Of a DNA stretch of 64,000 nucleotides, positions 13,133 through 64,000 are shown piece after piece. The position numbers were made by a program, and so were the translations under genes. The stretch's first letter is position 1. Each line of letters opens with the position of its first letter. The notes beneath the pieces are model-generated. The model searched no databases, had not been told where the DNA came from, and saw only the letters and a list, made by a program, of their open reading frames with translations. This DNA is from an uncultured Candidatus Saccharibacteria bacterium (GTDB lineage: Bacteria; Patescibacteriota; Saccharimonadia; Saccharimonadales; JACDBH01), in assembly GCA_964642275.1 (NCBI GenBank), contig CAZXOA010000001.1, forward strand, positions 12,729-76,728. The letters run 5' to 3'.

Positions 13133-13182
13133 CCTTATGCTTTATTTACTAGAGTTAAGTATAACTTAAAACCGGACCAATC

Positions 13183-13212
13183 AAAAAAGCACCAGATAGC
13201 CCGGTGCTTTTT
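13183..13212. terminator. bidirectional hairpin terminator after tRNA-Glu
   Basis: aaaaaagcacc-agatagccc-ggtgcttttt: a GC stem flanked by an A-run and a T-run. Confidence 0.4.
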
Positions 13213-13234
13213 ATGTGCATGTTCTAGCATAGAG

Positions 13235-13311
13235 TGGTGACCCCGGCGGGATTCGAACCCGCGATCTTCTGGATGAGAACCAGATATCCTGAACCGCTAG
13301 ACGACGGGGCC
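13235..13311 (-). tRNA. tRNA-Glu (anticodon CTC), CCA encoded
   Basis: The reverse complement is ggccccgtcgtctagcggttcaggatatctggttCTCatccagaagatcgcgggttcgaatcccgccggggtcacca. It has a cloverleaf with the T-loop GGTTCGAATCC and a 7-bp acceptor stem with one G-U pair. Confidence 0.85.
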
Positions 13312-13445
13312 AAGTTACTTTGCTCTAACTTTCAATTTGCATTGAGTAATTTACAAACAGAGCTCCACAATTCTAGCACAACAGGGGCGGTTTGTCTATA
13401 TTAGGATTGATTTTATCAGTAAAGAATTGTAAAATATGGTTAATT

Positions 13446-14156: not shown

Positions 14157-15009
14157 ATAAAGCGGTTGAGGTTGGAGTGCCGGTTGCAACAAGGGCTGCC
14201 GTGAGGGCTGCCTCGGCCCCGCCAATACCGCCCGGCGTCGGTGTAATGGTGGCGCCAATGACGCCGGAACTAAAGACAATCAGTGTTTGCACAAGTGATA
14301 ACTCTACTCCCAGGGCTCTTGCAACGGTATAAAGCACGCCTGCATAGAGCGCGGTAACCATACTTGCCGCCAAAAAGCCCGCCAGCAGTCTCTTGGGCCG
14401 CTTTTGGTAGAGCGACAGCGCCTTTGCGATGCCCAGCACAAGCTGCAGCAGCTTATTCTTTATAAGTGGTACGGCGACTAGTATAAGAGCACACAGGATA
14501 AAGGCAGCGAGAACTACTGGCAGCACAAAGCTCGGGAGCTGAAGCGGCGTAAGCTGATGGGTCGAAAAAATAACAGCGCTGAGCAGGATGGCCATATGGC
14601 CGGCAAACCCGAGCAGGTTATTGAGCGCAACAACCGAGCCCGCCTCAACTATAGTGTGTTTTTGGCGGTGCAGATATCTGACATTAAGCGCGACTCCGCC
14701 CGCACCGGCCGGAAGCAGCTTGGTGGCGAACCCGCTTGCAAGCTGGATGATAACGGTACGCCTGTATGATACGGGCCTTATAGCGAGCGCCATGAAGGCC
14801 GTAGCTGCGGCAAAAAATGTCAGAAACGTCAGGCCTATCCCGGCGGCGACAAACCAAAGATTCGCCTCTGTAAGGCTCTGTAGTGCCTGCGCCAGCGATT
14901 CGCGCTGCGGGATGAGTACTAGCAGCGCCAACAGCATTGCAATCGATACGATGACATATATTCGGGTAAGTCGCCGCGGACGGCGCGAGTGTGGATGGTG
15001 TTTTTGCAT
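14062..15009 (-). CDS. flippase-like membrane protein (lysylphosphatidylglycerol synthase TM-region / UPF0104 family)
   Basis: Polytopic membrane protein with an N-terminal RRPRR stretch and multiple TM helices. The start is taken at an internal Met to avoid overlap with the upstream response regulator. Confidence 0.55.
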   Translation of the reverse strand: MQKHHPHSRRPRRLTRIYVIVSIAMLLALLVLIPQRESLAQALQSLTEANLWFVAAGIGLTFLTFFAAATAFMALAIRPVSYRRTVIIQLASGFATKLLPAGAGGVALNVRYLHRQKHTIVEAGSVVALNNLLGFAGHMAILLSAVIFSTHQLTPLQLPSFVLPVVLAAFILCALILVAVPLIKNKLLQLVLGIAKALSLYQKRPKRLLAGFLAASMVTALYAGVLYTVARALGVELSLVQTLIVFSSGVIGATITPTPGGIGGAEAALTAALVATGTPTSTALSIALGYRLLTYWLPILPGFALFHYATRKGYV

Positions 15010-44994: not shown

Positions 44995-45342
44995 ATGGGT
45001 AAAGCCGCTACGCGTAAGCGAACGAGGAAGTTTAAGGGTGACCCGGTTGTAGATCAACTGGCGGTTGCTAATGCCCGCGGCATGTTTTTTGCCAATCTGT
45101 TTGGCATGGGGTGGCGCTTGGCGCTCATTGTGCTCGTACCGATTTTTGCCGGGGTGCAGCTTGATAAGAAGTTTGATACGGCGCCGTCACTCACATTGGC
45201 GGCATTTTTTCTTGCGGTTTTTGGAGCCGGTGTTATGATTGCACAGACCTACAACGACATGGCCAAGCAACAAGCGCTCGATGACGCAAAAGAAACAAAG
45301 CGCAAGCAGCGCCGGCTGTTAAGAAGGAGAAAGAATGCTTAG
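44995..45342 (+). CDS. ATP synthase protein I/AtpZ-like small membrane protein
   Basis: First gene of the atp operon. Two TM helices and a basic N-terminus. Confidence 0.4.
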   Translation: MGKAATRKRTRKFKGDPVVDQLAVANARGMFFANLFGMGWRLALIVLVPIFAGVQLDKKFDTAPSLTLAAFFLAVFGAGVMIAQTYNDMAKQQALDDAKETKRKQRRLLRRRKNA

Positions 45343-46165
45343 ATTTTTGTCAGTTTTTGCTGCAGTAGAAGAAAGCGGCCCAGCAATTCACATGACACCG
45401 GGCGAGCTGTTTACGCTTGGCGGGATTAGTGTCACCAACTCGATGGTATGGGGAGCTGTGTCTTCATTGTTTATTATTTTGCTGCTTGTTACTGTTGCGC
45501 GTCGTATGACGATACGACCAAAGCGCGGCTTTACGCAGTTTGTCGAGATAGGCACCGAATTTATTATCTCTACCATTCAGAGCGCTGTTGGTTCACGCAA
45601 AAAGGCCATCAAGTATGCGCCTTATTTTGTGACGGCATTCTTTTTTGTGATGTTTACGAACTGGCTGGGGCTTATACCTGGCGGCGGCGAGGCTGTGGTT
45701 TACAACAATCAGCCGATAGTTCGCCCATTCACAGCTGATTTAAACGGCACTCTGGCGGCATCGCTCGTTATGATGGTGCTCGTGCAATATTTCGCAATCC
45801 GCGACTTAGGCGGCAAGAAGTACCTGCGCCACTTCTTTGCTGGCAGCCTCAAAAATCCTGCCACATATCTGCTTGGTGTCTTTGAGATGTTTTCTGAACT
45901 GACCAAAGTCGGAAGCTTGGCGCTTCGGCTTTTCCTGAACGTGGCTATTGGTGAGGCAATCATTGCAATCTTTACGTATCTTGGCAGCTTTGCTGCGCCG
46001 ATCACCGTGCTGCCTATCCTGATACTGGAGCTGTTTATCGGCGCGCTCCAAGCCTACATATTCACCATGCTTACTATTATGTACCTGTCTGCGGCCATCA
46101 AGCACAATCATGAGGCCGAAGATCTGGAACGTCACGAGCTCGCTAAGCAGGCTGCAAGTGCGTAG
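45335..46165 (+). CDS. atpB: F0F1 ATP synthase subunit a
   Basis: Polytopic protein with the conserved Arg-containing helix (LALRLFLNVAIGE). Confidence 0.85.
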   Translation: MLRFLSVFAAVEESGPAIHMTPGELFTLGGISVTNSMVWGAVSSLFIILLLVTVARRMTIRPKRGFTQFVEIGTEFIISTIQSAVGSRKKAIKYAPYFVTAFFFVMFTNWLGLIPGGGEAVVYNNQPIVRPFTADLNGTLAASLVMMVLVQYFAIRDLGGKKYLRHFFAGSLKNPATYLLGVFEMFSELTKVGSLALRLFLNVAIGEAIIAIFTYLGSFAAPITVLPILILELFIGALQAYIFTMLTIMYLSAAIKHNHEAEDLERHELAKQAASA

Positions 46166-46202
46166 TAGGAACCAATTAAGTAAATAAAGGAGTTATAGAA
46201 AG

Positions 46203-46409
46203 ATGGAATTAGAAATCATCGGTAAAGGCATTATGATGGCATTTGGTATGCTTGGCCCAGCAATTGGAATTGGTATGATCGGCTCAGCCTTCATGAACGC
46301 CGTCGGACGCAATCCGGAGGCAGCCAAGTATTTCGGCCAGATCTTTGTGATTATCGCTATCGTCGAGCTTATGGCATTGCTCGTATTCGCATCACTATTC
46401 ATCATTTAA
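46203..46409 (+). CDS. atpE: F0F1 ATP synthase subunit c
   Basis: 68-aa hairpin proteolipid with the GxGxGxG helix and a carboxylate helix (IVELMALLVFA). Confidence 0.85.
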   Translation: MELEIIGKGIMMAFGMLGPAIGIGMIGSAFMNAVGRNPEAAKYFGQIFVIIAIVELMALLVFASLFII

Positions 46410-46440
46410 GCGCGGAGTTATAGAAAGATAGAAAGGAATT

Positions 46441-46965
46441 ATGCTACCAACGTATTTTGCAGCTGCAGCAGACGAAGGCGGGATTTTGGGTTTTAGCGTC
46501 CAGGCATTCATTATCCAGATCATCACGTTCATTCTTGTCTTTATACTGCTCAAGAAGTTTACATTCAATAAGATTGTTGCCCTGCTTGATCAACGCCATC
46601 AGGTTATCAATGAAGGTGTCCGCCATGGCCAGCAGATGAGACAGGAGCGCGAAAGGTTCGAAAAAGAAACCGGCAAAATTGCCCGTGAAGCACGACACCA
46701 GGCCGATGAGATTATCGGCGATGCGCAAAAAGAAGCGCGCGAGATTGTCCGCGAAGCTGAAAAGGCAGCCAGCAAGAAGTCAGAGCTTATCCTGGCAGAT
46801 GCTGAAGCCCGGATTAACGAAGAAGTCGCTCAGGCCAAGCGCCGGGTAGAAAAAGACGTTGCCGAGCTCGTATCTGAAGCAACCGAAGCGATTGTCGAAG
46901 AAAAAGTCGATAGCAAACGCGACGCAGAGCTTATCGATAAGGCAATAAAGAAGGGCCGTAAATAA
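46441..46965 (+). CDS. atpF: F0F1 ATP synthase subunit b
   Basis: N-terminal TM helix followed by a long charged coiled coil. Confidence 0.8.
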   Translation: MLPTYFAAAADEGGILGFSVQAFIIQIITFILVFILLKKFTFNKIVALLDQRHQVINEGVRHGQQMRQERERFEKETGKIAREARHQADEIIGDAQKEAREIVREAEKAASKKSELILADAEARINEEVAQAKRRVEKDVAELVSEATEAIVEEKVDSKRDAELIDKAIKKGRK

Positions 46966-46967
46966 GC

Positions 46968-47378
46968 ATGAGTACGGCCGTCACGCGTAAAGAGCTGGCC
47001 GCTATTGTCGGTGAGAAGACACTGGCGATCTCTGACCGTGCCGAACTGGCGCGCAGCGTCGCGGCCTATATTGCTACCGAAAAGAAACCGGTAGATATTG
47101 ATTCGCTCGTGCGTGATGTTATGCAGTACCGGCTCGAGCGCGGGTATGTGGAGGCTATTGCCTACAGTGCTCACGTACTCCCGGATAACGTGCTCATAGA
47201 TATCGAGAAATTATTGCAAAAGCAGTATCCCAAGGCACACAAGGTGCACATTGATAATAGAATCGACGAGACTGCTGTAGGCGGGGTGCGTATTGAGCTC
47301 CCAAATGAAACGCTCGACTTGAGCATCAGATCAAAACTCAATTTGTTTAAACGGCGGTTATCCGAGGAAAGGAACTAG
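46968..47378 (+). CDS. atpH: F0F1 ATP synthase subunit delta (short form)
   Basis: Its position between b and alpha, and the OSCP-like C-terminal region. 136 aa, shorter than the typical ~180 aa. Confidence 0.65.
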   Translation: MSTAVTRKELAAIVGEKTLAISDRAELARSVAAYIATEKKPVDIDSLVRDVMQYRLERGYVEAIAYSAHVLPDNVLIDIEKLLQKQYPKAHKVHIDNRIDETAVGGVRIELPNETLDLSIRSKLNLFKRRLSEERN

Positions 47379-48932
47379 ATGGCGGTAAAGGATGTATCAA
47401 TAGCAGATTTGTCGGCGGATATTCGCGCGGCGATTGCAGAGCTGAAAAAGCGGCCGGAGATCGAAGAGACTGGTATCGTTACCCGCGTGGGTGACGGTGT
47501 GGTCTGGATTTATGGCCTGACTACGGTAGGTTATAACGAGATGGTCGAGCTGGAAGCGACCGACGGCAGCAAGCTGATTGCGTTCGCCTTCAACCTTGGC
47601 CAAGAAGAAATCGGGGCCGTGCTGCTGGGCGAGGATACGCTGGTAAAAGCTGGTGCCAAGGCGCACCGTACCGGCAAAGTTGTTGAGGTACCGGTCGGGC
47701 CCGAGCTGATTGGCCGCGTAGTCGACCCAATGGGCCGCCCGCTGGACGGCAAAGGTGCTATTAAGGCTAATGCAACCAGCCCAACAGAGAAGATTGCCCC
47801 AGGTGTGCTTGCCCGCAAATCCGTACACGAGCCGCTGGCAACCGGCATCATCGCCATCGATGCCATGGTGCCAATTGGCCGCGGCCAGCGCGAGCTGATT
47901 ATTGGCGACCGCCAGACTGGTAAAACCGCCATCGCGCTCGATACTATGATCAACCAGCATCGCCAAGGCACTGGTGTCATCAATATATACGTCGCAATTG
48001 GCCAAAAGATGAGCAAGATTGCCCGCCTGGTCGAGCGGCTCAAGCGCGAAGGCGTGATGGAGCAGACCATCGTGGTCGCGACATCCGCTGCCGACCCTGC
48101 TCCGCTGCAGTATCTGGCGCCTTACGCCGGTGCAACTATGGGCGAATACTTCCGTGATAACAAACAGCACGCGTTGATTATCTATGACGATCTTAGCAAG
48201 CACGCAGCGGCTTACCGCCAGATGTCGCTCTTGCTCCGCCGCCCGCCGGGACGCGAGGCGTATCCGGGTGATGTCTTCTATCTGCACAGCCGGCTTCTAG
48301 AGCGCGCTGCCAAGCTCAGCGACGAGCTTGGTGCCGGTAGCTTAACTGCCCTGCCGATTATCGAGACGCAGGCTGGTGATATCTCCGCCTATATTCCAAC
48401 CAACGTGATTTCTATCACCGACGGCCAGATCTTCATGGAAACCAACCTGTTCTACCAAGGTATCCGCCCGGCCGTATCAGTTGGTTTGTCCGTCTCGCGC
48501 GTGGGTGGCTCTGCCCAGACCAAGGCGGTCAAATCGGTTGCCAAATCACTTCGTGTGGATCTGGCGCAGTTCCGCGAACTTGCCTCGTTCAGTCAATTCT
48601 CGACTGACCTTGATGCCGATACCAAGCAGCGTATTGAGCGCGGCACCCGTCTGACCGAACTGCTCAAACAGCCGCAATACAGCCCGTATGCGGTATGGCA
48701 GCAATACGTCATGCTGCTGGCCGCAACCAGCGGTGCGTTTGACGAAGTCGAGGTCAGCAAGATCAAGATAGCCGAGGCTGCCCTGCTGCGCGAATTCAAG
48801 AACAAGCAGGCTAAAGTGCTGGAGCACATCGACGCTGGCAACGAGCCTGACGATAAGGATAAAGAAGCTATCCTGAAACTTGCTAAGCACGTTGCCGAAA
48901 GCTACCACCCAGTAGAGAAAGAGAGTAAGTAG
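47379..48932 (+). CDS. atpA: F0F1 ATP synthase subunit alpha
   Basis: P-loop GDRQTGKTA and the alpha signature. Confidence 0.95.
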
Positions 48933-48936
48933 CGAG

Positions 48937-49209
48937 ATGGAGATGACCCAAGACATCAGTATTACTGCCGAAGATGCTCAGCGCGCTGCGCAGTTGTGGC
49001 CAGCCTATGCTCACACTCCTGAGCATATAGGCGGTTTGTATGCCGGCGCGATTGCGGCCGGCGTACCGCCAGAAGCAGCACCTGGCTTGGTTGCTCGGGC
49101 GGCAGTTGAAACTGCCCCCACTAATATTCGTGCAAAGTGCGGTGACTTTTTAGTCGGTTTTGCTTTTGCCAGCCAAAACTACCATCCAGTCGATAAGGAA
49201 GCTAAGTAA
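48937..49209 (+). CDS. small unknown ORF intercalated between atpA and atpG
   Basis: 90 aa. It starts 5 nt after the atpA stop, and its stop abuts the next ORF's ATG. Confidence 0.35.
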   Translation: MEMTQDISITAEDAQRAAQLWPAYAHTPEHIGGLYAGAIAAGVPPEAAPGLVARAAVETAPTNIRAKCGDFLVGFAFASQNYHPVDKEAK

Positions 49210-49458
49210 ATGCCTTACGAAGATATGCCAACGGGCACGTTTCTAACTGTTGACAAGGTTTCCTTACTTGACATGTCAAAAGCTGCTGCTATTGCAAGAA
49301 TTTCGTTTGCAAGCAGGAACCAAGATGCCTACCAGGTAGTGGTCGGTGACAACCTGGTAGCTTGTATACATATTCACAATGGAATAAGCCCGATAGCACA
49401 AGAGATCCTTGATTCAAAAAATTCAGATGAAGAAGGAGACCGAGCAGCAAATGGCTAG
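49210..49458 (+). CDS. small unknown ORF intercalated between atpA and atpG (second)
   Basis: 82 aa. Its ATG directly follows the previous TAA. It overlaps the atpG start by 8 nt. Confidence 0.35.
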   Translation: MPYEDMPTGTFLTVDKVSLLDMSKAAAIARISFASRNQDAYQVVVGDNLVACIHIHNGISPIAQEILDSKNSDEEGDRAANG

Positions 49459-50316
49459 TACGCAGCAGCTTAAACGGCGCATCGGAACCGTCAAGAACAC
49501 TAAGCAGATTACCAAGGCTATGGAATTAGTAGCTGCTTCGAAGATGCGTAAGGCTACGGAGGCTGCGCATCGCGGTCGTGCCTACCGCGAGGCAGCGCAC
49601 AGTATGTTGGCCCGCTTGTCTACCGTGACCGAGATCACCGAGCACCCGTTGTATACGACTCGTGACATCAAGACTCGTCTGTATGTAGTTATCACTTCCG
49701 ACCGCGGCTTAGCTGGTGCGTACAATGCTAATATCATCAAGCTGTTGACGCGCGCCATCAAAGATGACCGTGCCGAAAAAATTCAGAGCCAGATTATCAT
49801 CGTGGGCAAACGCGGTGCGCAGTTTGTACGCCGGATCGAGGGTATCGACATTATTGCTGCATATGCAGACTTTGGTGATCATCCAACAGCCAATGATATC
49901 CGTCCAATTCTTGATACGGTTATTGAACAGTACCGCACTGAGGCAGTTGACCAAGTCCGTCTGCTGTACACCGAGCACAAATCCAATCTGGTACAGATCG
50001 CGCAGAATCTTGCTGTCCTGCCCGCCTCGTTCGATGCCGAAGCAACCGAGGAACAGGGCCTGGCTGACGTGACATTTGAGCCAAGCGTGCAAGAAGTGCT
50101 TGAGAACGTAACTGAGCGTCTGCTGGAGGTGCAGATCTGGCAAGCCATGCTTGAGTCAATCGCCTCAGAGCAGTCAATGCGCATGCTGAGCATGAAAAAC
50201 GCCACCGACAACGCAGGCGAAATCATCGACGACCTGACGCTCGAATTCAACACGGCCCGCCAGGCTAAAATCACCCAAGAGTTGGCAGAAATCACCGGCG
50301 GCGCGGAGGCAATGAA

Positions 50317-50320
<4 letters not shown>
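49451..50320 (+). CDS. atpG: F0F1 ATP synthase subunit gamma
   Basis: N-terminus MASTQQLKRRIGTVKNTKQITKAMELVAASKMRKA matches the gamma consensus. AAGGAG lies upstream. Confidence 0.85.
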
Positions 50321-51929
<1,609 letters not shown>

Positions 51930-53529: not shown

Positions 53530-55017
53530 TTGTGGGCTATACTGGAGACAGTATCTATGAGCAATACAAATACAGACATGCAAAAGCATTCATCTGAGTC
53601 GGCGCTCCCGGTTGGCGGCAAGAGCATTACGCCAAACTTGCGCGCACTGCGCCTGGCGCTGACAATCAGCGACCAGCTGCTGTCTATGGGCGTGTCGGCT
53701 GCCAGTGTGGTGTCACGGGCTCTTGATATAACCGAAGCGTACTGCAAAGACCCGGTCCATGTAGATATCAATTCGAACGTCATCATGCTCTCGCAGATTC
53801 GGGATCTCAAGAGCGAACCGCTGACGCTAATCCGACCTACCGCTCCGCGGACGGTTAATAGCCGGACCATTCATGCTATACAGGATTTGGTTTATCGTAT
53901 TCGTTCGCGCAAGCTGAGTCTGACTCAGGCAGAAGACGAGCTCGACAAAATACTGACTTCCCCCAAAGAGTACCCGACATGGCTTCGTTCGGCAGCGACA
54001 GCTGGTATTGCCACGGGTGTGAGCCTCATGTTTACTAGCAACTGGCGCGTTATTGTCACTACTTTTTTTGTTGCCTTTATCGTTGAGCGTTTTATGGACC
54101 TGCTTTATAAGAATTCGATGGCTACGTTTTTTCGCCAGGCTGCCGTTGCTGCTTTTGTGACCATCGGCGCGGCACTGATACATATGCTTGCCAGAAACGG
54201 CGTCGATTTTTTTGCCGGTATTGACCCGTCGTACATTGTTGTCGGCGGTATTATTATGCTGCTCTCCGGTCTGGCTATTGTCGGGGCTATTCAGGATGCT
54301 ATTGATGAATATTACGTGACGGCCAATGCGCGTATCCTCAAGGTCCTTATTCTGACCTCGGGCATTGTTGTCGGTGTTTTGATTGGCCTGTATGTTGCGC
54401 AGAAGCTGGGAATAGGCATCACTGTTTCTGCCGATTCGCTTGCCACGGGAGACGTTACCTTCAGGATTATCGGTGCAGGCATTGCCGCCGGCTCGTTTGC
54501 ACTCTCGACGCACACCCGGCTGCGTGCGGTCGTGTGGGCTGGCATGGTGGGATGCACCGCGCTCATCATTATGCTCCTTGCCAGAAACGCGGGCCTCTCG
54601 GCTATTCCTGCCAGTGGTATCGCTGCGCTCTGTGTAGGACTTATTGCTAAAACATTGTCGAGAGTGTGGCACACGTCATCATCTGGTATTGTGGCGGCTG
54701 GTATTATTCCGCTTGTTCCAGGTCTAGCGCTCTATAACGGCCTTATGCAGCTGGTGGATCACCCTACTGGCGACCCGCTGTTCTTTATGGGAATCGGTAC
54801 GCTGTTTACCGCCTTTGCCGTAGCACTGGCGATAGCAGCCGGTGCATCCTTTGGCACAACTCTCTCGCGTCCCTTTAGTCAGAGGCAGGTGCAAAAGCGC
54901 AACACAGGACCCTTCGCTGATTTTATGCGCGAACAGCTTGAGCTTGGAAAAACCCAGGCCGGCACGGTTCTGCGAAAGTCGGCAAAATACCTCAAATCAT
55001 CTTTTGATGATAAATAA
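53530..55017 (+). CDS. ThrE-family threonine/serine exporter (fused DUF1212 and DUF3815 halves)
   Basis: 495-aa polytopic protein with the architecture and size typical of ThrE. Confidence 0.6.
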   Translation: MWAILETVSMSNTNTDMQKHSSESALPVGGKSITPNLRALRLALTISDQLLSMGVSAASVVSRALDITEAYCKDPVHVDINSNVIMLSQIRDLKSEPLTLIRPTAPRTVNSRTIHAIQDLVYRIRSRKLSLTQAEDELDKILTSPKEYPTWLRSAATAGIATGVSLMFTSNWRVIVTTFFVAFIVERFMDLLYKNSMATFFRQAAVAAFVTIGAALIHMLARNGVDFFAGIDPSYIVVGGIIMLLSGLAIVGAIQDAIDEYYVTANARILKVLILTSGIVVGVLIGLYVAQKLGIGITVSADSLATGDVTFRIIGAGIAAGSFALSTHTRLRAVVWAGMVGCTALIIMLLARNAGLSAIPASGIAALCVGLIAKTLSRVWHTSSSGIVAAGIIPLVPGLALYNGLMQLVDHPTGDPLFFMGIGTLFTAFAVALAIAAGASFGTTLSRPFSQRQVQKRNTGPFADFMREQLELGKTQAGTVLRKSAKYLKSSFDDK

Positions 55018-55043: not shown

Positions 55044-56798
55044 CTAGTTTTGATTGTAGACAGATTGCAAATGCGCCTGCAGCGTATCTGACTTTTCGGC
55101 AGACCAATTGTCTGGCTGAGTGACTGCCGCCCATGCATATACAGCGGTGTCGTCATAGTAATGCCCCCGGCCGATAGGTGCCGACGCGGCTATAGCTTGG
55201 TCTAGACCGATCTGCAAAAAACTGACAATTGGATACCAGCTGGTACGCGGCGATACGTCGGGTGCACGTGTTTCGTCAAGCCAGTCCGGCTTGTTGAACA
55301 GCAAATCGAAATTGAACCATACCACCGGATCAGAACCATGCTGCTGGAATAAAATTCTGGTGTCGCTTTGCCACTGTTGTTCTGCAGCCAGGATGTCATC
55401 TCGTGAGGAAACAAACTGCACGGTTCGGCCGCCGCGGTAGGTCGGCTGCCACTCCGGGCTGCCTGCATCGCGGGCATCGGTTATCTGCCGCCACAGCTCA
55501 GCTGCATTCGGCGTACCGACAAACAGGACACCGTCAACCGACCGGCGCATATCATTAACACCGCTAAAGGCCGACTGCCCGCCGAACGAACCAAGGCTCA
55601 GGCCATATACGATCAATTTTGGGCGCGATTCGCGCGGGAGCTCTGCCCATTCGTCAATCACGGCATCGTACAGCGCCCTGCCAGCCAGGCGGGCGTTTTC
55701 TTGGTCAACGAGGAATGAAATCCAGCTAGGCAGATAGGAGTATTGCTGCGACACAATAGCGGTATTTCCGCCGTGCATGTACTCAACAGCGTCCATGACA
55801 GTCGGATCAAGCCAGCCGGTGCCGGTTGCGGTGGCGAGTACTAGGAGGTCTCGCTCAAAAGCGCCGGTGCGTTTCAGTTCTGCCAGTGCCAGCTCGGCAC
55901 GGGCCTCTGCGCTATCGGCGCTGGCAAGCCCAGCATAGACGCGGATAGGCTCAAGACTTGCCTTTCCGCTAAACGTACTGATATCTTCTGCGGTTGGGCC
56001 GCTGCCCACAAAACCCCTGCCCTGAAAGCCGATGTGTTCCCACGGGATGAGCGATTCCGGACTGCCCGAACGCAGGCTGCTGACTGGTTGCACAACACCT
56101 TCTGGTGCGCGGTCGTCTCGCAGGCTGAAAGCATTGTTCACGAGACTGTACATATTTGACACCAACAGGCCGCTCAGTACCCAGTAGACAAACCAGGCGC
56201 TGACAACGATGGCAATACCCACACCAACCCGTTTTGGCAGGCGCTTGTGCAGGAGTACACTCAGCCGGTGGTTGATTGCCTGGATTCCCTTGCCTATCAG
56301 CAGCAGCGGCACAAAAACCGCCAGCGATACAATCGGCAGTACAATCATGTTCAGGTCGGTAAAGGCTCGTCCGGTATCCAGGATTTCGTGCACTTCATTC
56401 TGCCACATTTTGCCAAGAAACAGGTAGATGATAACCAGCAGCGGCAGCAGTACAATCGCACCCCGCCAAGCCCATTGGCGCACCTGTAGCGAAAACTTAT
56501 ATTCGGTAAACCAGCGGATAAGCGAGCTCAGGCCCACGCCGATTGCGTAGCCGGCAGTCAGTGAAAGCCCGCTGATAACGCTCTGCAGCCACCACGGCCG
56601 GGGCAGCAGCGACGGAAACAAGGATATGCAAAAGAACAGGATACCCAGTACTAATCCGCCGTACACCGGCCGCCATCCCAGAACACGCTCAATAATTCGT
56701 GCTGGCCAAGCCTTGGCCTGTGGCGATTTTTGACGCCTTTTCATATCAGTATCATACCAGAGACAACACTGATTAGAAATGTTGCTTCTTAGGGGCAA
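55044..56798 (-). CDS. membrane-anchored alpha/beta-hydrolase family protein (Abhydrolase_9-like)
   Basis: N-terminal multi-TM region plus a C-terminal hydrolase domain with a GLSLGS nucleophile elbow. Confidence 0.5.
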   Translation of the reverse strand: MPLRSNISNQCCLWYDTDMKRRQKSPQAKAWPARIIERVLGWRPVYGGLVLGILFFCISLFPSLLPRPWWLQSVISGLSLTAGYAIGVGLSSLIRWFTEYKFSLQVRQWAWRGAIVLLPLLVIIYLFLGKMWQNEVHEILDTGRAFTDLNMIVLPIVSLAVFVPLLLIGKGIQAINHRLSVLLHKRLPKRVGVGIAIVVSAWFVYWVLSGLLVSNMYSLVNNAFSLRDDRAPEGVVQPVSSLRSGSPESLIPWEHIGFQGRGFVGSGPTAEDISTFSGKASLEPIRVYAGLASADSAEARAELALAELKRTGAFERDLLVLATATGTGWLDPTVMDAVEYMHGGNTAIVSQQYSYLPSWISFLVDQENARLAGRALYDAVIDEWAELPRESRPKLIVYGLSLGSFGGQSAFSGVNDMRRSVDGVLFVGTPNAAELWRQITDARDAGSPEWQPTYRGGRTVQFVSSRDDILAAEQQWQSDTRILFQQHGSDPVVWFNFDLLFNKPDWLDETRAPDVSPRTSWYPIVSFLQIGLDQAIAASAPIGRGHYYDDTAVYAWAAVTQPDNWSAEKSDTLQAHLQSVYNQN

Positions 56799-56878: not shown

Positions 56879-57184
56879 ATGTACAAAGATCAGACACCCA
56901 CCCTACCTAATCCTGATTCACGTCCAGAAGATTGGATTGACTATGCAGCGTGTGCTACTGCAGAGTTTTCGTTTGATGGATTTCCGGAGGCAAAGAGTCG
57001 CAAAAGCGCGTTTGGCTATAAGCACGTTGCGACTGCGGCAAGCATCTGTGCGGACTGCGTCGTTTTCAGCCAGTGTTTGGAAGAGCTGCAAGACACCCGT
57101 CGGACCGATCGTAACACTGGCTCAGTCCAAGCCGGTCACTTCGTCGGCAAAAATGGCGGGTTATTCAATCTCTTAGACCAATAG
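56879..57184 (+). CDS. WhiB-like (Wbl) Fe-S transcription factor
   Basis: W-x3-AAC...FFP-like N-terminal motif (WIDYAACATAEFSFDGFPE) and the Cys pattern C-x30-C-x2-C-x5-C (ICADCVVFSQC). Confidence 0.6.
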   Translation: MYKDQTPTLPNPDSRPEDWIDYAACATAEFSFDGFPEAKSRKSAFGYKHVATAASICADCVVFSQCLEELQDTRRTDRNTGSVQAGHFVGKNGGLFNLLDQ

Positions 57185-57216: not shown

Positions 57217-57351
57217 CTACTGGCCGCGCGTAATCTGCTCGATAATAATCACCTGCTCATCTATAGCTTGTTTTTCGGCCGGCGTGAGCGGCCGTTCGGG
57301 CTTTGGCCGGAATAACTTTTTCAGTGCGCTTAATAATTTAGACATAGTCAT
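57217..57351 (-). CDS. 44-aa peptide ORF directly downstream of the GIY-YIG gene
   Basis: Reads MTMSKLLSALKKLFRPKPERPLTPAEKQAIDEQVIIIEQITRGQ. It starts 13 nt after the GIY-YIG stop. Not in the supplied ORF track (<60 aa). Confidence 0.25.
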   Translation of the reverse strand: MTMSKLLSALKKLFRPKPERPLTPAEKQAIDEQVIIIEQITRGQ

Positions 57352-57363
57352 TACAAAACTTAT

Positions 57364-57651
57364 CTAGTGGCCGCCTTCTACGATATACCCCAGGTCCTTT
57401 AGCTTTACCGCATGTCTATACTCCATATCTAGCGCCTCTTGCCTGGTTTTCAGGTGTGGAATATGTTCGTACAAATCAGGACGGAGCTCAAGTTGCATTG
57501 CGCTGCGCAGACAGGGTGCGGAGTGCGTGCCTTCTTTGTGTTGCTTTAGCCTCTCCTCTGGTTTTAGGTAGGTCTGACCGACATATACATTGTATGGATC
57601 GCCGTCTATCTCTAGAACATAAATACAGTATGTGTATTTTTTGTTTGCCAT
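57364..57651 (-). CDS. stand-alone GIY-YIG nuclease domain protein (95 aa)
   Basis: GIY-YIG motifs: YCIYVLE ... YVGQT ... R (RLKQH) ... E (EALDME). Its start is coupled to the upstream gene's stop, 1 nt apart. Confidence 0.6.
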   Translation of the reverse strand: MANKKYTYCIYVLEIDGDPYNVYVGQTYLKPEERLKQHKEGTHSAPCLRSAMQLELRPDLYEHIPHLKTRQEALDMEYRHAVKLKDLGYIVEGGH

Positions 57652-57652
57652 A

Positions 57653-58636
57653 CTATTCCGTCACCAGTTCAGGATTGAATAATTGGACCGTATGATCCCT
57701 TGGTGTTATGTCGCCAATAGTGGTAAGCTTGGTTATCTCAAGTTTTGGCTTCTTAAGCTCATCATCAGCATCTAGCTTCTTCTGTGTACGGATAATCGTA
57801 GCTTCTATTTCAATCTCTTTGTCAAACAGTGAATCCTTTATATCGCGTATCTCTTTGCTCTTGAGCGTGGATGTCAAAATATGACCACCATACACGAACC
57901 CCAGTGTCCCGGTATTGGTGTTTGCACGTGATAAAGTACCTTTTAATTTCAGATTTTCGCCATGCTGCCACTCTGGGAACACGACCCCGTCATCATCAGC
58001 ATTGTTGCTGCCAAAATAGGGTTTACTATCGGCATCGATTCTAACTATAGTGTCTGACTGTGTTGTCTCGCCGGCCTCACCTATAAAAAGTTGCGTGTCG
58101 TTATCCACGACGCTTGTTATCTTCTTGAATATGTCCTTAGGAGCTTTAGCGTAAGTCTCAAGTTCATCCTTAGTAACGGTCAGCTCTTCTCCAGAAGGGT
58201 TTATTATTACAATGTTGTCAGCGCCAGTTATCTTGGTTTCTTCTGGATGAAATTGGTGTTTGCCCATCACGCCCATATGCTTGGCGATTCTGGCGGTCGA
58301 CTTTATCTTCTTTACCGCTTTATCAAGGATCTCCTTTGATGTTTTATCTCCAACGTCATTCTTGGCCATTTGTGTTCCTGCTGAAATCGCGTAGGCGGCA
58401 AGCCCACCTCCAATCACAACGCTTACCAGCCAAGCTATTAGTGAGCCTGATTCTAGTCGTATCTCGATATCATAATTATCTTTTAACTCTGGGTGCTCTG
58501 AGTTGATAAAATACTTGGTTGTTTTTTCGATGCCAGACAGAATATTATGCACGTCAGTCAGTGTTATTTTGCCGTCCTCAACACGCTTGCCTTCAAGTTT
58601 AATAAAGTTCAGGTTGTCATTTTCGGCTTCACCCAT
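57653..58636 (-). CDS. hypothetical single-pass membrane protein (327 aa) with its own promoter
   Basis: TM helix LIAWLVSVVIGGGLAAYAISAG. No recognisable domain. AT-rich. Leaderless consensus promoter at 58643-58671. Confidence 0.4.
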   Translation of the reverse strand: MGEAENDNLNFIKLEGKRVEDGKITLTDVHNILSGIEKTTKYFINSEHPELKDNYDIEIRLESGSLIAWLVSVVIGGGLAAYAISAGTQMAKNDVGDKTSKEILDKAVKKIKSTARIAKHMGVMGKHQFHPEETKITGADNIVIINPSGEELTVTKDELETYAKAPKDIFKKITSVVDNDTQLFIGEAGETTQSDTIVRIDADSKPYFGSNNADDDGVVFPEWQHGENLKLKGTLSRANTNTGTLGFVYGGHILTSTLKSKEIRDIKDSLFDKEIEIEATIIRTQKKLDADDELKKPKLEITKLTTIGDITPRDHTVQLFNPELVTE

Positions 58637-58642
58637 GTTGAC

Positions 58643-58671
58643 AGTTTAACAATAACCAATCCTACTTGCAA
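58643..58671 (-). promoter_or_regulatory. consensus promoter TTGCAA-17-TAAACT on the minus strand for the 327-aa gene, implying a leaderless transcript
   Basis: Minus strand reads ttgcaa-gtaggattggttattgt-taaact-gtcaac-ATG, so the ATG lies at the predicted TSS. Confidence 0.4.
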
Positions 58672-58702
58672 TCCGGCCAATAGTATTGTATTAACGTAAG
58701 CG

Positions 58703-61700
58703 TTATGACATTTCGATAACGGCGATTTCTTCGGGGGTTAGGTTGTAGAGTTGGTAGACTAGTTGGTTGATTTTGGCTTCTTGGGTGGAGATGTCGGCAG
58801 CGGGGTTAGTGGTTTTGACGTCGATGATCTCTGTGACGAGCTGCTCTATCCTAGACTCCAGCTCATCACTACCCGGGCTTGGCTTCGGTATCGGGAAGTC
58901 CGCTACGACATCTCCCTTCAACTCAAGCACATCGCCTTTTACGGCACCTTTATTTTTGAGCCAGACTAGCGCTAGCTTTGAGTTTAGCAATGCTAAACAT
59001 AGCTCTAGGCTCCTTTTTGATGAGTCATACACGAAGTAGGTGTCAGTGCCAGAAAACCACTCGTCTTTAATGAGCGAGAATATATTGGTCTTTGCTCTGT
59101 ATGGAAATACGATTTTATCACCGGTAAACATGCGAACATCTCTTGGCCATAGAAGTGTGTACCAGGCTTGTTTTGAGCGTTTGATCTGGGCTCTGTCGGC
59201 AAGAGCATCGCGGTGCGATTCAAGGTACTTGTATATTTGCGGATTATCTTCTGGCACAAAATCTTTATCAACATAAAGCACACTCTTGGTAGCAAGAGTC
59301 CGGGTTATGTATTTCTTGACATCCGAGTTCTTGAAAAATGGCTTTATGTATTGACGCTCCGATTCGCTGATTTTATCAAAAAAGTCCGGTCGGCCATCAA
59401 ATATAAAAACCGTATTATTACCAGTTTCCAGTCCTTTGCTTACTTTATAGTAGTCCTTTACCCGAGGGTGCTTCAGTGTAATGTCTTCCATTAGCGTATT
59501 GACTAGGTTGTCTCTAAGGTCTATAAAACCGCGACTGTTGTATATGTTAGCCTGGGATATGTTGTAGTATTCGGTGTCTTCATCTATGCCGCTTAGGATT
59601 TGCGGTATAGCAGACGATGAGTCGCCAGGATAGCCCTTCCTGCTCGTTATGATTGTCTGGCAGTCTACATCGTGTTTGCCTTTTCGTAGCTGCGTAATCA
59701 GGTTATGCTGACCGATGGCGCTCTCAAATATCTTCAATTCATGGAAGTTAATGAAACGCAAAGGAGTTGCTCGTGTCTTATAATCTGCACGCAGCTTATC
59801 CGCGTTGGTTGCCGTTAGGTAGTAATTGGTCGAGATGAATGTTAGGACTCCGTTGTCGTGCAGGATATCTAGTCCAAGATGGAAGAAGAAGTAGAACAAG
59901 TCCATCTTGCCCTTGTAGAAGCGTTGGCCTAGGGATGTTGTCTTAAGGTTATCAAACATCGCCTTATGTCCTTTTTCTCCAACATACGGCGGGTTGGCTA
60001 TGACAATATCAAAGCCATCTATACCAAACATCCACTCGGCATCAAACCAGTCCGTTGGCTTGTCTTCAAACGGTTCCCAGCGTGAAAGCATTGTGTATCT
60101 ACCGGAAGCTTGGCCTCCGAATTCATCAATTGTTTTCATGAACATTTGTTTTTGAAGCCGGTCAAACTCGTTTCGCAAAGCTTCGCGCTGGCCAACATTT
60201 GCAGTAAAGTACTCGTCACGTATCCTGCGTAGTGCATCTATGTGGTCGGTGTCTTCTAGTAGCGAGCTTTGTTTTGCTGCAGTTTCGGCAGGCAAACCAA
60301 CGAGTGAGTTGGCAGTGACAAACTTGAAGTCCAGGTTTGGCAGTGGACGGATGCCTCTGTTGTCTTTACTGTCATCAACTTCTTCTTCAATAATCAGTGT
60401 TAGGAAACAGCGGAGCTTTGCGATCTCTGTCGCTATTGTTTGGATATCTACGCCAAAAATGGACTCGCGTATGACGCCAAGCTTTCGCAGGTAATCATAG
60501 TTTTCATTACGATACTTTTCCTCTATATCACGGCGGAGTTCAGGGGAAGTGATGTGTTTGAGCTGATTTTCCAGCCATCGCTCTGCGTGTTCATCAACCT
60601 GCTGGAGTATGTAGACAACCTTTTGCAGGATGCCTATCGGGAACGCACCGGAGCCACAGGCTGGATCGAGTATGGTTAGGCCGGCCAGCGCGGTCACAAC
60701 CTTTTCCTTTTCGCCGTCCGTCAGTTCACGCTCTTTGTCGTCTTCTTGACCCCAACTAATGAGAGCTTTGAGCTTTTCTTCGTCAACACCAGTCTTACAC
60801 TTTAGGCATTCCAGCAGCGAGCTGTCTACCATGTAGTCCACTATTTCGCGTGGCGTGTAGAAGCTGCCAGTGGACTTGCGCGCAGACTCGCCCGTTTCTG
60901 GATTTATTTCAGCCAACAGGTTCTCAAAAATGCGCCCCAGCATTTCCGGGTCGATTGAAAGGTCTACATCGTACGAAGTGTTTTCATCTACCGTAAAGTT
61001 ATACTGTTCGAGGATAGAGAACAGTTCGATAAACCAGCCATCGGGTATAGATACAAGGCCAGGATTGCCGCCGCCGGTGAAACTATTCTGCTGGTAGTAG
61101 TCGCCTGCGTGGGGGCTAAACAGGCCGCCATTCAAATACGGGACAGTTGAGAACGGTACTTCGCGTAGTGATTCGTGGCGTTGCCCAACGCGCTTGTTGA
61201 GCAACTCAAAGAACAATGGCTCAAGAATACTGTGGTAGTAATCGGCATGTGCGGCTACTGCGCTGAGCGACAATAAATCATCGGGTACAATTGGTATTCC
61301 GGCATTACTTTTCTTTTCTTTGAGAAACCAACTAAAAACTATACGACCTATCAGCCTAACCGCAAATTCCTGATGCTCGTTACCCGTATCAGCTTTGCCA
61401 TGAATCTTTAATTGCCCCGGATATTCTTTGATACCACGCTTGCCGCCAACTAGCTTCGTGAAGAGATCGGCCACCGAGGCATAGAACTGCTTATTGACTA
61501 CTTCGACAGAGAAGCGCTCTTGCAGCTGCTTGATATCTTCGACGCGGCCTTTTTCTATCAGGTACTTGTAAGGTGTGACAGTCTTTGCACCTACGCCCAA
61601 TAGGTATGAATAGCGGCGCGGGTTGCTGTCTTTTTTGACCACTTTGCCATCTTTGATCTGTAGCGTAGATGTTAGCAGTGAGAGTCGCCAGTGATCGTTG

Positions 61701-61981
61701 CCGTCGTGAAAGGCTATGATGGCGTTGCGGATTTGGTGGTTACGTAGAACTTTAAAAGCGGCTTGGGTGATTGCGATGCGCTTGCCCGAGTCGGTCTCCT
61801 CACACTCTGCTTCAAGTACCGTAACATCGAAATCCCTCGACTTTGATTCGCCGAGTTTCGTTACGCTGGTAAGGATTGAACCGTCAGCGCGCACTTGGCG
61901 TTCGTCTCTTTGATAATCTGGCAAGAAGCCTTTCAGAAAGGTGTCAAAAAGTTCTTTGTTATAGGGTTTATCTAATATCAT
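58703..61981 (-). CDS. MmeI/PglX-like gamma-class N6-adenine DNA methyltransferase (Type IIG/IIL-like, 1092 aa)
   Basis: MmeI-like N-terminal domain (VPYLNGGLFSPH; TGSFYTPREIVDYMV), SAM motif I ILDPACGSGAFPIG, catalytic motif IV VIANPPYVGEKG, and a roughly 450-aa C-terminal TRD-like region. ATGA overlap with the upstream helicase gene. Confidence 0.85.
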   Translation of the reverse strand: MILDKPYNKELFDTFLKGFLPDYQRDERQVRADGSILTSVTKLGESKSRDFDVTVLEAECEETDSGKRIAITQAAFKVLRNHQIRNAIIAFHDGNDHWRLSLLTSTLQIKDGKVVKKDSNPRRYSYLLGVGAKTVTPYKYLIEKGRVEDIKQLQERFSVEVVNKQFYASVADLFTKLVGGKRGIKEYPGQLKIHGKADTGNEHQEFAVRLIGRIVFSWFLKEKKSNAGIPIVPDDLLSLSAVAAHADYYHSILEPLFFELLNKRVGQRHESLREVPFSTVPYLNGGLFSPHAGDYYQQNSFTGGGNPGLVSIPDGWFIELFSILEQYNFTVDENTSYDVDLSIDPEMLGRIFENLLAEINPETGESARKSTGSFYTPREIVDYMVDSSLLECLKCKTGVDEEKLKALISWGQEDDKERELTDGEKEKVVTALAGLTILDPACGSGAFPIGILQKVVYILQQVDEHAERWLENQLKHITSPELRRDIEEKYRNENYDYLRKLGVIRESIFGVDIQTIATEIAKLRCFLTLIIEEEVDDSKDNRGIRPLPNLDFKFVTANSLVGLPAETAAKQSSLLEDTDHIDALRRIRDEYFTANVGQREALRNEFDRLQKQMFMKTIDEFGGQASGRYTMLSRWEPFEDKPTDWFDAEWMFGIDGFDIVIANPPYVGEKGHKAMFDNLKTTSLGQRFYKGKMDLFYFFFHLGLDILHDNGVLTFISTNYYLTATNADKLRADYKTRATPLRFINFHELKIFESAIGQHNLITQLRKGKHDVDCQTIITSRKGYPGDSSSAIPQILSGIDEDTEYYNISQANIYNSRGFIDLRDNLVNTLMEDITLKHPRVKDYYKVSKGLETGNNTVFIFDGRPDFFDKISESERQYIKPFFKNSDVKKYITRTLATKSVLYVDKDFVPEDNPQIYKYLESHRDALADRAQIKRSKQAWYTLLWPRDVRMFTGDKIVFPYRAKTNIFSLIKDEWFSGTDTYFVYDSSKRSLELCLALLNSKLALVWLKNKGAVKGDVLELKGDVVADFPIPKPSPGSDELESRIEQLVTEIIDVKTTNPAADISTQEAKINQLVYQLYNLTPEEIAVIEMS

Positions 61982-64000
61982 TTGCGCAAATCTTCTGTAA
62001 ACATGATAATTTCACTTACACTGTCGATGGCTTCGGCTTTTTGCTTGATAACATTGAGGTAGTGTGGGGTGAACTTTTGCTTTAATTCCTGAACGGTATC
62101 ACCTAAATTTTCTTCATCTAGACGTAATTGGGAAATATATTTGAGCTCACCGTTCGACAAATCGTCGAATTCACGGATGGCGTCATAAAGATCAAACAAG
62201 TAGTCACGTTCCGGTGGGTATGTTTCTTTGAGTGCCTCGACAATTTTCAGAGCCTCTGCCCTGCGCCCCTGTATCTTCGGCAGGGGGTGCGGAGCAGTAA
62301 TACGTTTGCGCAGTATTTCAAACTTTTTATCCAGCTGCGCGTCACCTTTGAGAGACTTTTCTTCTCTGTCGGCTTTAAAGTGTGGCAACACGAATTCTGG
62401 TGACACGATTTCAGCCCCTAAATCGTACCCTGTGGCCAAGGCAAACATTATTCCATTGCCACGTTTGGCAAATGATATAGATACATTCTTGGCTTTGCCT
62501 TCTCTCACAATACGCGTGCGTTCCGGAATATTCTGAACTTCATTCAATAAATTCTTGTCATGCTTGATCGAGTTATAGATGTTGCGATATTCGTTATCCC
62601 AAGAACGCTCGCTAGATGCTTCGTCTGCATCATTGTATGTACTCTTGAAGTAGCTCTTCAGATCTTCATCTGGTGTAAGTGTGCGGGTATCACTGCCGAC
62701 AATGTTATTGATGAGTAACATTTTGAGTGTGCTTATGCCTTTAACGTTGGCGATGTCTTCACCCACATCAGTCGGGAAGAAATTGTAGATGTAAATGTTG
62801 TCAAACATCTTCTGGTTGATACGGTTGATACGACCTATGCGCTGGACGACTCGGGTTGGGTTGTACGGTATGTCGTAGTTGATAATGATGCCGGCACGGT
62901 GGAGGTTGAAACCTTCTGATAGTGCATCGGTAGCCACAATGATATCGTAGTCGTTTTTCTGATCGCCATCGTACGAGGCATCGAAGTTTTCCGACACAAT
63001 CTTTTTCAGTTCGTTGCCGGATGAACCGGTGTAGAGCAACGTTCGCTCAAGGCCATGCTCTCGCAAATTTTTAGCCACATATTCTGCCGTGTCTGCATAG
63101 CCAGAGAAGATAACAATTTTGCGCTCTGGGTTTTCTGCGAGCAACTCTTGGAGCTTTTGTTCTGTACGCTCTTGCTTTGGGTCGTCGCCAGTCAGGCCGC
63201 GGGCAAACCAATCTTGCTTAATCTTTTGGAGTAGTTCTAGGTCTTTGCGTGCAAATATTGCAAATGAGTCTTCGAAGAGTTCTCGAGGGATAGGGATCGC
63301 AGTTTTTTTGATAGCGTCTATATCAATTTCTTCACCGCTATCAATAAGGCCCATGATCTCGTCTATGGAATCGAATTCTTCTAGGTCATCGGGGTCGACT
63401 AACTCACCTTTTTTCAGAATAGGCACATATCCCTTATCCCACCATTTGAGAATGATGTCATGCGATCGAATCATCTTGTCAAGTGTGGACTGAAAGGCAT
63501 ACTTTGAGCTCTCGAAGCGTTGCACGAGCAACCGGCGCATGAACTGAGCCAGGTTTGCTTGAGCAGTCTTGAGGTCGGTATCGTCGAAGAAGTCCTTGTA
63601 CTTTTCTACAAATTCATCACGATCTCTGATGTATGATGCCGATTGGTAGCGTGCGCCATTAAAGCCATTCTCCGCATCTGTCAATTTTTCTAGCGTACTA
63701 ACATACAGTTGGCGAATATTGCCTAGGTCATATTCAACCAATTCTGGTCCAACTACTTCCGGGAACTCGATATTTTGGTTGTGGAGGTCGTCGGCATACT
63801 CTTTGATTTCTTTGAGGTCAATACGTGACCGTCGAATAATCACTGGTTCGATAAGTAGGCGCAGGTCATGACTAAGTTTTTGCAGCTCGGTCTTAACCTC
63901 ATCAGTCATATTCTTTTTGCCGAGTCTCTCTAGTTTTTTGTATTTACTGATTAAATCGTCGAATCTCAGTCCAAGATTATCAACCGAGTTAATGGTCGAA
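61978..64000 (-). CDS. SNF2-family (SF2) helicase, N-terminally truncated by the window edge
   Basis: Helicase C-terminal lobe with SNF2-type motif VI (DIIVATDALSEGFNLHRAGIIINYDIPYNPTRVVQRIGRINRINQ). The reading frame stays open upstream of the annotated Met at 63909 to position 64000. Confidence 0.7.
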   Translation of the reverse strand, partial: STINSVDNLGLRFDDLISKYKKLERLGKKNMTDEVKTELQKLSHDLRLLIEPVIIRRSRIDLKEIKEYADDLHNQNIEFPEVVGPELVEYDLGNIRQLYVSTLEKLTDAENGFNGARYQSASYIRDRDEFVEKYKDFFDDTDLKTAQANLAQFMRRLLVQRFESSKYAFQSTLDKMIRSHDIILKWWDKGYVPILKKGELVDPDDLEEFDSIDEIMGLIDSGEEIDIDAIKKTAIPIPRELFEDSFAIFARKDLELLQKIKQDWFARGLTGDDPKQERTEQKLQELLAENPERKIVIFSGYADTAEYVAKNLREHGLERTLLYTGSSGNELKKIVSENFDASYDGDQKNDYDIIVATDALSEGFNLHRAGIIINYDIPYNPTRVVQRIGRINRINQKMFDNIYIYNFFPTDVGEDIANVKGISTLKMLLINNIVGSDTRTLTPDEDLKSYFKSTYNDADEASSERSWDNEYRNIYNSIKHDKNLLNEVQNIPERTRIVREGKAKNVSISFAKRGNGIMFALATGYDLGAEIVSPEFVLPHFKADREEKSLKGDAQLDKKFEILRKRITAPHPLPKIQGRRAEALKIVEALKETYPPERDYLFDLYDAIREFDDLSNGELKYISQLRLDEENLGDTVQELKQKFTPHYLNVIKQKAEAIDSVSEIIMFTEDLRK

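Follow-up and report, generated by a model that had tools for sequence, protein, structure and literature searches.

Single-chain enzymes of the MmeI family (Type IIL) and of the Eco57I type (Type IIG) are collinear proteins, composed of an N-terminal alpha/beta domain of about 150 residues, a helical spacer, a gamma-class N6-adenine methyltransferase and a single target-recognition domain (TRD). MmeI enzymes stand alone and cut at a fixed distance without using ATP. Type ISP enzymes, such as LlaGI and LlaBIII, combine an Mrr-type nuclease with a PD-QXK motif, an SF2 translocase, a gamma-class methyltransferase and a single TRD for an asymmetric site in one polypeptide, and cleave after ATP-driven translocation and collision (PMC3874165). 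In the MANTIS (Gao_RL; MtsC/MtsD) and SauUSI systems, on the other hand, the effector is a separate helicase of the SF2 type bearing a phospholipase D-like (PLD) domain, and the PLD-helicase effectors MtsD and SauUSI dimerise into one active site (bioRxiv 10.64898/2026.09.23.753747). Aravind and colleagues pointed out that HKD domains are fused to SWI2/SNF2 ATPases in some restriction-modification (R-M) systems (PMC3417536), and Milman et al. (2023) list Type IIG-like coding sequences adjoining a coding sequence with PLD and SNF domains (PMC9881135). Here, we describe a gene pair of this type in a 64,000-nucleotide window from an uncultured Candidatus Saccharibacteria bacterium (contig CAZXOA010000001.1, assembly GCA_964642275.1, positions 12,729 to 76,728), and focus on the large methylase encoded by the minus-strand open reading frame (ORF) 58703-61981. 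We consider it likely that this methylase serves as the subunit for modification and target recognition in an ATP-dependent R-M system of two genes, in which the upstream, translationally coupled PLD(HKD)-SNF2 helicase would be the subunit that cleaves. The pairing and its architecture have been catalogued before, and the PADLOC entry C3a139 ('HKD+Snf2') and the gene pairing of Milman et al. most likely represent the same kind of locus, both being catalogue entries only; what is new is the N-terminal domain (N-domain) of the methylase, previously unannotated, in this two-subunit PLD-SNF2/Type IIG-like R-M module. For the gene pair, we found no experimental characterisation, name, mechanism or description of the methylase N-domain in the literature.

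The ORF, first called from the letters of the window in what we refer to as the sequence-only reading, was confirmed. Its product of 1092 amino acids (aa) belongs to the gamma-class N6-adenine methyltransferases of the Eco57I/MmeI type, has motifs I and IV intact and matches Eco57I (3.8e-26) and MmeI_Mtase (31.8 bits, cut-off 27) in Pfam and the model REase_MTase_IIG ('Type IIG restriction enzyme-methyltransferase', 4e-79) in PADLOC. The solved structures nearest to its family profile in the PDB are those of CamA, BseCI, PglX/BrxX, BpuSI and MmeI. The C-terminal region, which aligns with the C-terminal halves of CamA and BseCI, holds a single TRD, as in Eco57I/MmeI-type enzymes; TaqI_C is weak in this protein (20.4 bits, cut-off 26.5), yet recorded for most homologues. 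The spacer is homologous to that of MmeI as well, family-profile positions 212-291 aligning with MmeI 190-264 (5HR4; E 2.8e-9 among all PDB sequences), and DUF7814 and MmeI_hel give weak Pfam matches in the same region. The PADLOC matches begin at aa 155 and leave the N-domain uncovered. The features of the two genes are as follows.

58703..61981, minus strand: methyltransferase and specificity subunit, 1092 aa, with N-terminal alpha/beta domain, helical spacer, gamma-class N6-adenine methyltransferase and TRD

61592..61981, minus strand: N-terminal alpha/beta domain, aa 1-130, from an AlphaFold2 (AF2) model; family-specific, unannotated in all libraries searched

61796..61834, minus strand: motif flagged in the sequence-only reading, DFDVTVLEAECEE, aa 50-62, covering strand beta3 and the acidic loop after it

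61595..61690, minus strand: best-conserved stretch of the N-domain, from WRLSLL (aa 98-103) to SNPRRYSYLLG (aa 119-129)

60992..61579, minus strand: helical spacer, aa 135-330, from AF2 secondary structure; homologous to the MmeI spacer

59702..60964, minus strand: methyltransferase core, aa ~340-760, with motifs I and IV

60641-60670, minus strand: motif I, LDPACGSGAF, aa 438-447

59984-59995, minus strand: motif IV, NPPY, aa 663-666

58706..59701, minus strand: target-recognition region and C-terminal helix, aa ~761-1092

61978..64000, minus strand: 3' two-thirds of the partner gene, a PLD(HKD)-SNF2 helicase, whose 5' end and PLD domain lie beyond the end of the window

The partner gene was completed from a longer contig of the same DNA (L001), which two 200-nt end segments of window 57301-64000 match exactly and at the expected spacing. 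At full length (L001 6702-10004), it encodes 1100 aa with the Pfam domains PLDc_2 (aa 21-206), SNF2-rel_dom and Helicase_C, only one PLD domain being present, and carries the motifs H145-A-K147, G170-S171-N-N173 (GSNN), Walker A GLGKS (303) and DEAH (372). Its best PADLOC match is the C3a139 model (3e-49), and it also matches the NCBIfam family 'phospholipase D-like anti-phage protein' (4e-40), with a score of 138 against a family cut-off of 1100. The stop codon of the helicase gene overlaps the start of the methylase gene by 4 bp (ATGA). Related loci were sought with a 345-aa alignment, and 80 were drawn from GTDB species representatives, 74 of them evaluable; a PLD-SNF2 helicase lies directly upstream of the methylase in 72 of these, and the same partner is found there in all 10 loci reached through homologues, down to 33% N-domain identity. 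A Parabacteroides (P. distasonis) plasmid also carries the pair, annotated merely as 'SNF2-related protein' and 'N-6 DNA methylase'. The window locus thus shows what defines the two-gene module, that is, a PLD-SNF2 helicase and a large gamma-class methyltransferase-TRD gene, adjacent and co-oriented, with intact HKD and helicase motifs. The suggestion in the sequence-only reading that cleavage is supplied in trans by the helicase fits well with these data, as the residues H145, K147, G170, S171 and N173 (H-x-K...G-S-x-N) of the predicted PLD nuclease site are invariant in 65 of 65 full-length partners.

Several loci depart from this arrangement. In five Saccharibacteria loci (L024-L026, L040 and L046), the helicase has only ~826 aa and the PLD domain is missing (e.g. 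L024 3509-5989). The methylase N-domain has V-V-R in L024-L026 and L046 and T-A-R in L040 where the window protein has E-A-E, no ExK having been regained, so that these pairs are without a recognisable nuclease. In L028 (9129-9968 and 10513-12840, both minus strand) and also in L029, both from Nanosyncoccaceae, the methylase gene has a partial TaqI_C-like ORF in antisense orientation at its 3' end, and downstream, on the other strand, there is a 5'-truncated SNF2 gene. The arrangement resembles an invertible cassette for specificity (TRD), and cassettes of this kind have been reported for such genes (Milman et al. 2023, PMC9881135). In L009 (6976-8858), the methylase is truncated and is separated from the helicase by an inserted RhuM-family gene. 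The Lactococcus dairy plasmid pUCCL635A (L094, 517-7498) encodes an analogous pair, consisting of a 1233-aa PLD+SNF2-type helicase and a 1097-aa Eco57I-like methylase. The first ~215 aa of the latter are unrelated in sequence to the N-domain described here, which means that the two-gene design is not tied to one N-terminal module but occurs with at least two.

The N-terminal region had been read as a nuclease-like domain of ~230 aa that aligns with the endonuclease domain of MmeI; both the size and the alignment need revision. A confident AF2 model of aa 1-345 (pLDDT 86, from a 92-sequence alignment) shows an alpha/beta domain in aa 1-130 only, followed by helices in aa 135-330, that is, by the spacer, and aa 1-148 modelled alone gave a better result (pLDDT 91.9, pTM 0.86). 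The elements of the domain are H9-19, E23-30, E37-47, E52-60, H68-81, E86-92, E97-110, E113-119 and E125-129, and their order, alpha-beta-beta-beta-alpha-beta, is that of the PD-(D/E)XK core. Since the spacer next to it is homologous to MmeI 190-264, the domain occupies the slot of the MmeI endonuclease domain. When 1.84 billion cluster representatives were searched exhaustively with HMMER, the N-domain was recovered in 1188 representatives at 50% identity, and in 150 of the 150 matches listed it is N-terminal, mostly in proteins of ~1000-1200 aa and in some shorter fragments. In L010, the domain is a separate 228-aa ORF (8001-8687) abutting an 892-aa methylase (8687-11365), which is either a frameshift or a genuine split.

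Similarity to a nuclease was sought in sequence, profile and structure libraries. Neither the window protein nor 43 diverse family members gave an N-domain match in Pfam, including MmeI_N, even at E<=10; the isolated domain had no match in PADLOC, and its profile had 0 matches to all PDB sequences at E<=10. Foldseek against PDB and BFVD returned noise only (best E 0.004-0.013, TM<=0.36) and placed no nuclease close to the domain; Cas4 (4ic1), at rank 23 with a TM of 0.27, was the sole PD-(D/E)XK protein among the top 50. For a direct comparison, we took the MmeI sequence from 5HR4 and built an MmeI_N profile from 58 relatives; MmeI has D70-X9-E80-X-K82, the triad given in the sequence-only reading, and all three residues are invariant in the 58 relatives. 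Aligned by hhalign with a 43-sequence N-domain profile, the MmeI_N profile scored 15.5 (E 0.17), and in a column-shuffle control (n=200, mean 13.1 +/- 2.75) this score was reached by 28 of 200 shuffles. Two hhalign alignments, with MmeI alone and with the MmeI_N profile, are collinear and place WRLS opposite FRLT and SNPRRYSYLLG opposite QNVRSFGFIAG, but the register of the catalytic strand is not the same in the two. Every statistical test of N-domain homology to the MmeI nuclease domain was negative, with no significant alignment to MmeI or to any other nuclease in the structure-guided comparison by AF2, hhalign and Foldseek, and an MmeI-like nuclease fold is unproven.

The flagged string DFDVTVLEAECEE is real and contains no Lys. 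It had been placed at the position of the MmeI catalytic triad, and this holds in part: AF2 puts VTVLEAEC on the third strand, with E57-A-E59 at the expected place of ExK, but the homology to the MmeI endonuclease domain that would fix the correspondence went undetected. Conservation, proposed in the sequence-only reading as a check on the motif, was scored over 144 diverse family representatives, and the candidate catalytic positions are not conserved. D50 and D52 are variable; position 44, at the end of beta2 where the Asp of the PD motif is expected, is Gly in 97%; E57 is kept in 71%; position 59 is E31, K22, R17, T15, I11 and S10; and position 64 is mostly a gap in the wider family. Entire sublineages have I-V-R, V-V-R, V-V-K or Q-V-N at positions 57-59. 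It is for this reason, and not because a Lys is absent, that the domain appears to be without a competent PD-(D/E)XK site, in agreement with the sequence-only reading; lacking a conserved acidic-acidic-Lys triad, it is probably not a nuclease. The residues that are near-invariant are others, namely R68, F76, R99, S101, S119, N120, P121, R123, S125, G129, K133 and T136 (R99, S119, R123 and S125 in 143, S101 and G129 in 144 and N120 in 136 of the 144), and this pattern of Arg, Ser and Lys conservation suggests phosphate or protein contacts and not two-metal catalysis. An apparent active site that is invariant on the helicase stands in clear contrast to a putative pseudo-site that drifts on the methylase. 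Distant members have a semi-conserved E-[IV]-x-H-x-S-E-x-D-[PA]-R on strand 3 and the next loop (e.g. VYEIEHSSEHDARV), and the subfamily of the window protein has LEAECEETDSGKR in its place (aa 57-68; window 61796-61810 region), only the final Arg, R68, being invariant.

One alternative concerns the ancestry of the domain and has, in our view, somewhat less than an even chance of being correct: the N-domain would be a true, highly divergent derivative of a Type IIG/IIL PD-(D/E)XK domain, which lost catalysis after the PLD-helicase partner was gained. Apart from the comparison with PglX, this is the view taken in the sequence-only reading. Its position and size equal those of the MmeI nuclease domain, upstream of a demonstrably homologous spacer, it shares the order of elements and, in the AF2 model, a beta-alpha-beta crossover after the E-bearing strand, and the hhalign alignment is collinear across ~120 columns. 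Against this, the hhalign score lies within the shuffle null and the register of the ExK strand is inconsistent, and the Pfam, PDB-profile and Foldseek searches described above gave no MmeI_N or other nuclease family. The broader proposal, that the N-domain is an undescribed fold or an unrecognisably diverged fossil nuclease, exapted as a coupling module that recruits and licenses a separate PLD-SNF2 motor nuclease, and that these pairs form a distinct, very widespread 'split Type ISP' class based on PLD chemistry, is put forward only tentatively, and we would sooner expect parts of it to fail than the whole to stand. Such systems are spread widely: the GTDB species representatives that carry one number at least 526 and come from groups as different as Patescibacteria, Clostridia and Gammaproteobacteria, with a methanogen among them. 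The locus had no match in E. coli genomes. The module is widespread, and there is nothing paradoxical about its architecture.

In the proposed model for the helicase-methylase pair, the methylase would bind a short asymmetric site and methylate one adenine, thereby marking self DNA. At unmodified sites, it would recruit or license the SNF2 motor, which would then translocate DNA. Each helicase has one HKD motif, and since a PLD active site needs two, cleavage would require two motor subunits and might take place once these come together with their PLD domains paired, in the manner of BfiI, SauUSI and MANTIS MtsD; this would also fit a collision of converging complexes of the kind seen with Type ISP and Type III enzymes. 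The N-domain, whether a fossil nuclease or an unrelated fold, is most likely non-catalytic and may dock or regulate the helicase subunit or contact DNA, its conservation making it an obvious candidate for the subunit interface or an additional DNA contact.

Among the described systems, Type ISP appears to be the best mechanistic analogue of the pair, which shares with it the parts list of nuclease, SF2 translocase, gamma-class methyltransferase and single TRD. In contrast to the single polypeptide of Type ISP, there are two polypeptides here, a PLD nuclease and an SNF2-family motor, and no sequence match to 4XQK was recovered. Membership in Type ISP was rejected on the grounds of the two ORFs and of a nuclease that is PLD and not Mrr. 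The MANTIS and SauUSI systems resemble the pair in having a methyltransferase that marks asymmetric sites and, as a separate effector, a PLD-SF2 helicase, but MANTIS uses an alpha-class methyltransferase that needs the AAA+ loader MtsA and MtsB and has four genes, unlike the gamma-class, Eco57I-like enzyme in a two-gene arrangement described here; identity with MANTIS (Gao_RL) was rejected on the same two counts. Taken as a whole, the helicase-methylase pair would in its mode of action come closest to a Type ISP enzyme that is split in two and has an effector of the MANTIS/SauUSI type. The MmeI family is like the methylase in its homologous spacer and methyltransferase, the latter with MmeI_Mtase above the cut-off and motifs I and IV present. 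It is unlike it in that the window protein has no D-X9-E-X-K and no detectable MmeI_N similarity and belongs to a family strictly paired with an ATPase-nuclease, so membership in Type IIL was rejected, the defining nuclease domain and the stand-alone, single-chain nature both failing. Hma was rejected because its helicase, HmaA, bears a C-terminal PD-(D/E)XK nuclease.

Some observations weigh against the proposed two-gene system. In the close subfamily (>=47% identity, n=120), an acidic cluster is kept in the N-domain (E57 in 108, E59 in 84, E61 in 97, E62 in 99 and D64 in 100). BamHI has E-x-E in place of E-x-K, and since such a replacement is possible, a missing Lys alone is no proof of inactivity. 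The methylase is also kept with a PLD-less or decayed helicase in L022, L024-L026, L040, L046, L028/L029 and L061; the pair is therefore not obligatory for persistence of the methylase, and in these loci the restriction half seems to have decayed in the ordinary way. Furthermore, we infer the interaction of helicase and methylase and the role of the N-domain only from co-occurrence and conservation, and we found no biochemical data for any member in the literature.

The persistence of the methylase beside PLD-less or decayed helicases would also suit a different explanation, in which the pair blocks phages without cutting, in the manner of BREX or DISARM, or in which an orphan epigenetic methylase happens to lie next to an unrelated helicase. 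Weak matches to the PglX, DrmMI, DrmD and BrxH models are in line with it. We consider it improbable: the scores are far below the curated cut-offs (64 versus 500 for PglX and 153 versus 610 for DrmD), genes for BrxA/B/C, PglZ, BrxL, DrmA and DrmB were found neither in the window nor in L001 nor in the other loci inspected, the invariant HKD motif argues for phosphodiester chemistry, and the 4-bp overlap and the adjacency in 72 of 74 loci speak against an unrelated neighbour. PglX/BrxX of BREX and the methylase are both large adenine methylases of the gamma class whose specificity region is C-terminal, and the weak profile matches extend over core and TRD. An inactive nuclease domain had been named as characteristic of PglX in the sequence-only reading, but the N-terminus of PglX/BrxX has been described as a helical bundle like the N-terminal domain of M.EcoKI (PMC12839542). 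About 160 fewer residues precede its catalytic motif, and PglX is therefore without the extra alpha/beta domain. As BREX_1_MTaseX gave 64.3 bits (cut-off 500) and BREX genes were found neither nearby nor in six other loci, the likeness to PglX was not upheld and BREX PglX was rejected as an identity. Class 1 DISARM, which provides the next-best defence-system matches, likewise encodes an SNF2 helicase (DrmD) together with an Eco57I-like adenine methylase (DrmMI), but has its PLD domain in a separate protein, DrmC, whereas here PLD and helicase are fused; it was rejected on the DrmD score of 153 and because no DUF1998 (DrmB) or DrmA genes are found in L001-L008. That the N-domain is itself an active, non-canonical metal-dependent nuclease working through E57/E59/E61/E62/D64, which would make the protein a self-sufficient Type IIG R-M enzyme, as its best PADLOC models are named and as the acidic cluster of the close subfamily might suggest, is highly unlikely, given that these positions vary freely across the family, that sublineages have V-V-R or I-V-R at 57-59, that the PADLOC matches exclude the N-domain, which alone has no match at all, and that the invariant site is instead the PLD site of the partner.

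Large 'Type IIG' annotations are often taken as self-contained restriction enzymes, and the helicase-paired methylase family would represent a different solution: if the proposed division of labour is correct, a conserved domain without catalytic function stands where MmeI has its nuclease, and cutting is placed on a coupled PLD-SNF2 motor. Hundreds to thousands of 'N-6 DNA methylase / SNF2-related protein' pairs would then be reclassified as one ATP-dependent R-M class, the pair would join MANTIS and SauUSI as a second example of a methyltransferase-steered PLD-helicase effector, and the N-domain would become a defined candidate coupling interface. PLD-SNF2/methylase systems occur commonly in gut Clostridia and in Saccharibacteria and are carried by conjugative elements, and are therefore likely to impede both gene transfer to these organisms and their genetic manipulation.

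The remaining features of the window near the module are the following.

57653..58636, minus strand: 327-aa ORF directly downstream of the methylase, with no Pfam, NCBIfam or PADLOC match; outside the conserved module

57364..57651, minus strand: 95-aa GIY-YIG domain protein (Pfam GIY-YIG, 9.7e-6); outside the conserved module

45335-51929 (plus strand), 53530-55017 (plus strand) and 55044-56798 (minus strand): F1Fo ATP synthase operon (a, alpha, gamma and beta subunits), ThrE-family exporter and Abhydrolase_9 membrane protein, ordinary chromosomal genes flanking the island

The 327-aa ORF and the GIY-YIG gene, which follow the methylase in this order with a 1-nt gap between them, are local passengers. 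The former was not found in the 92 other related loci, the latter is missing from them save for two weak look-alikes (L023 and L015), and the pairing of the two is confined to the window locus among the 93 related loci; the GIY-YIG protein, which the sequence-only reading had offered as the other possible source of cleavage, is not supported as a partner of the methylase. The look-alike in L023 (9638-10063) is a 141-aa GIY-YIG-like ORF downstream of the methylase. The R-M island has a GC content of 43-49%, compared with 51-61% in the flanks (window 57364-64000; L001 ~4000-15000), and its closest relatives, in which both genes are 80-85% identical at the aa level, come from Saccharibacteria, Patescibacteria and unclassified metagenome-assembled genomes. 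In L002, L003 and L004, the module adjoins conjugation genes of a type IV secretion system, which points to recent horizontal acquisition. Elsewhere in the window, a sub-threshold WhiB match at 56879-57184 had raised the suspicion of an actinobacterial host, but the structures closest to the AtpD protein of the window are those from Firmicutes and Fusobacterium, with the mycobacterial ones less close.

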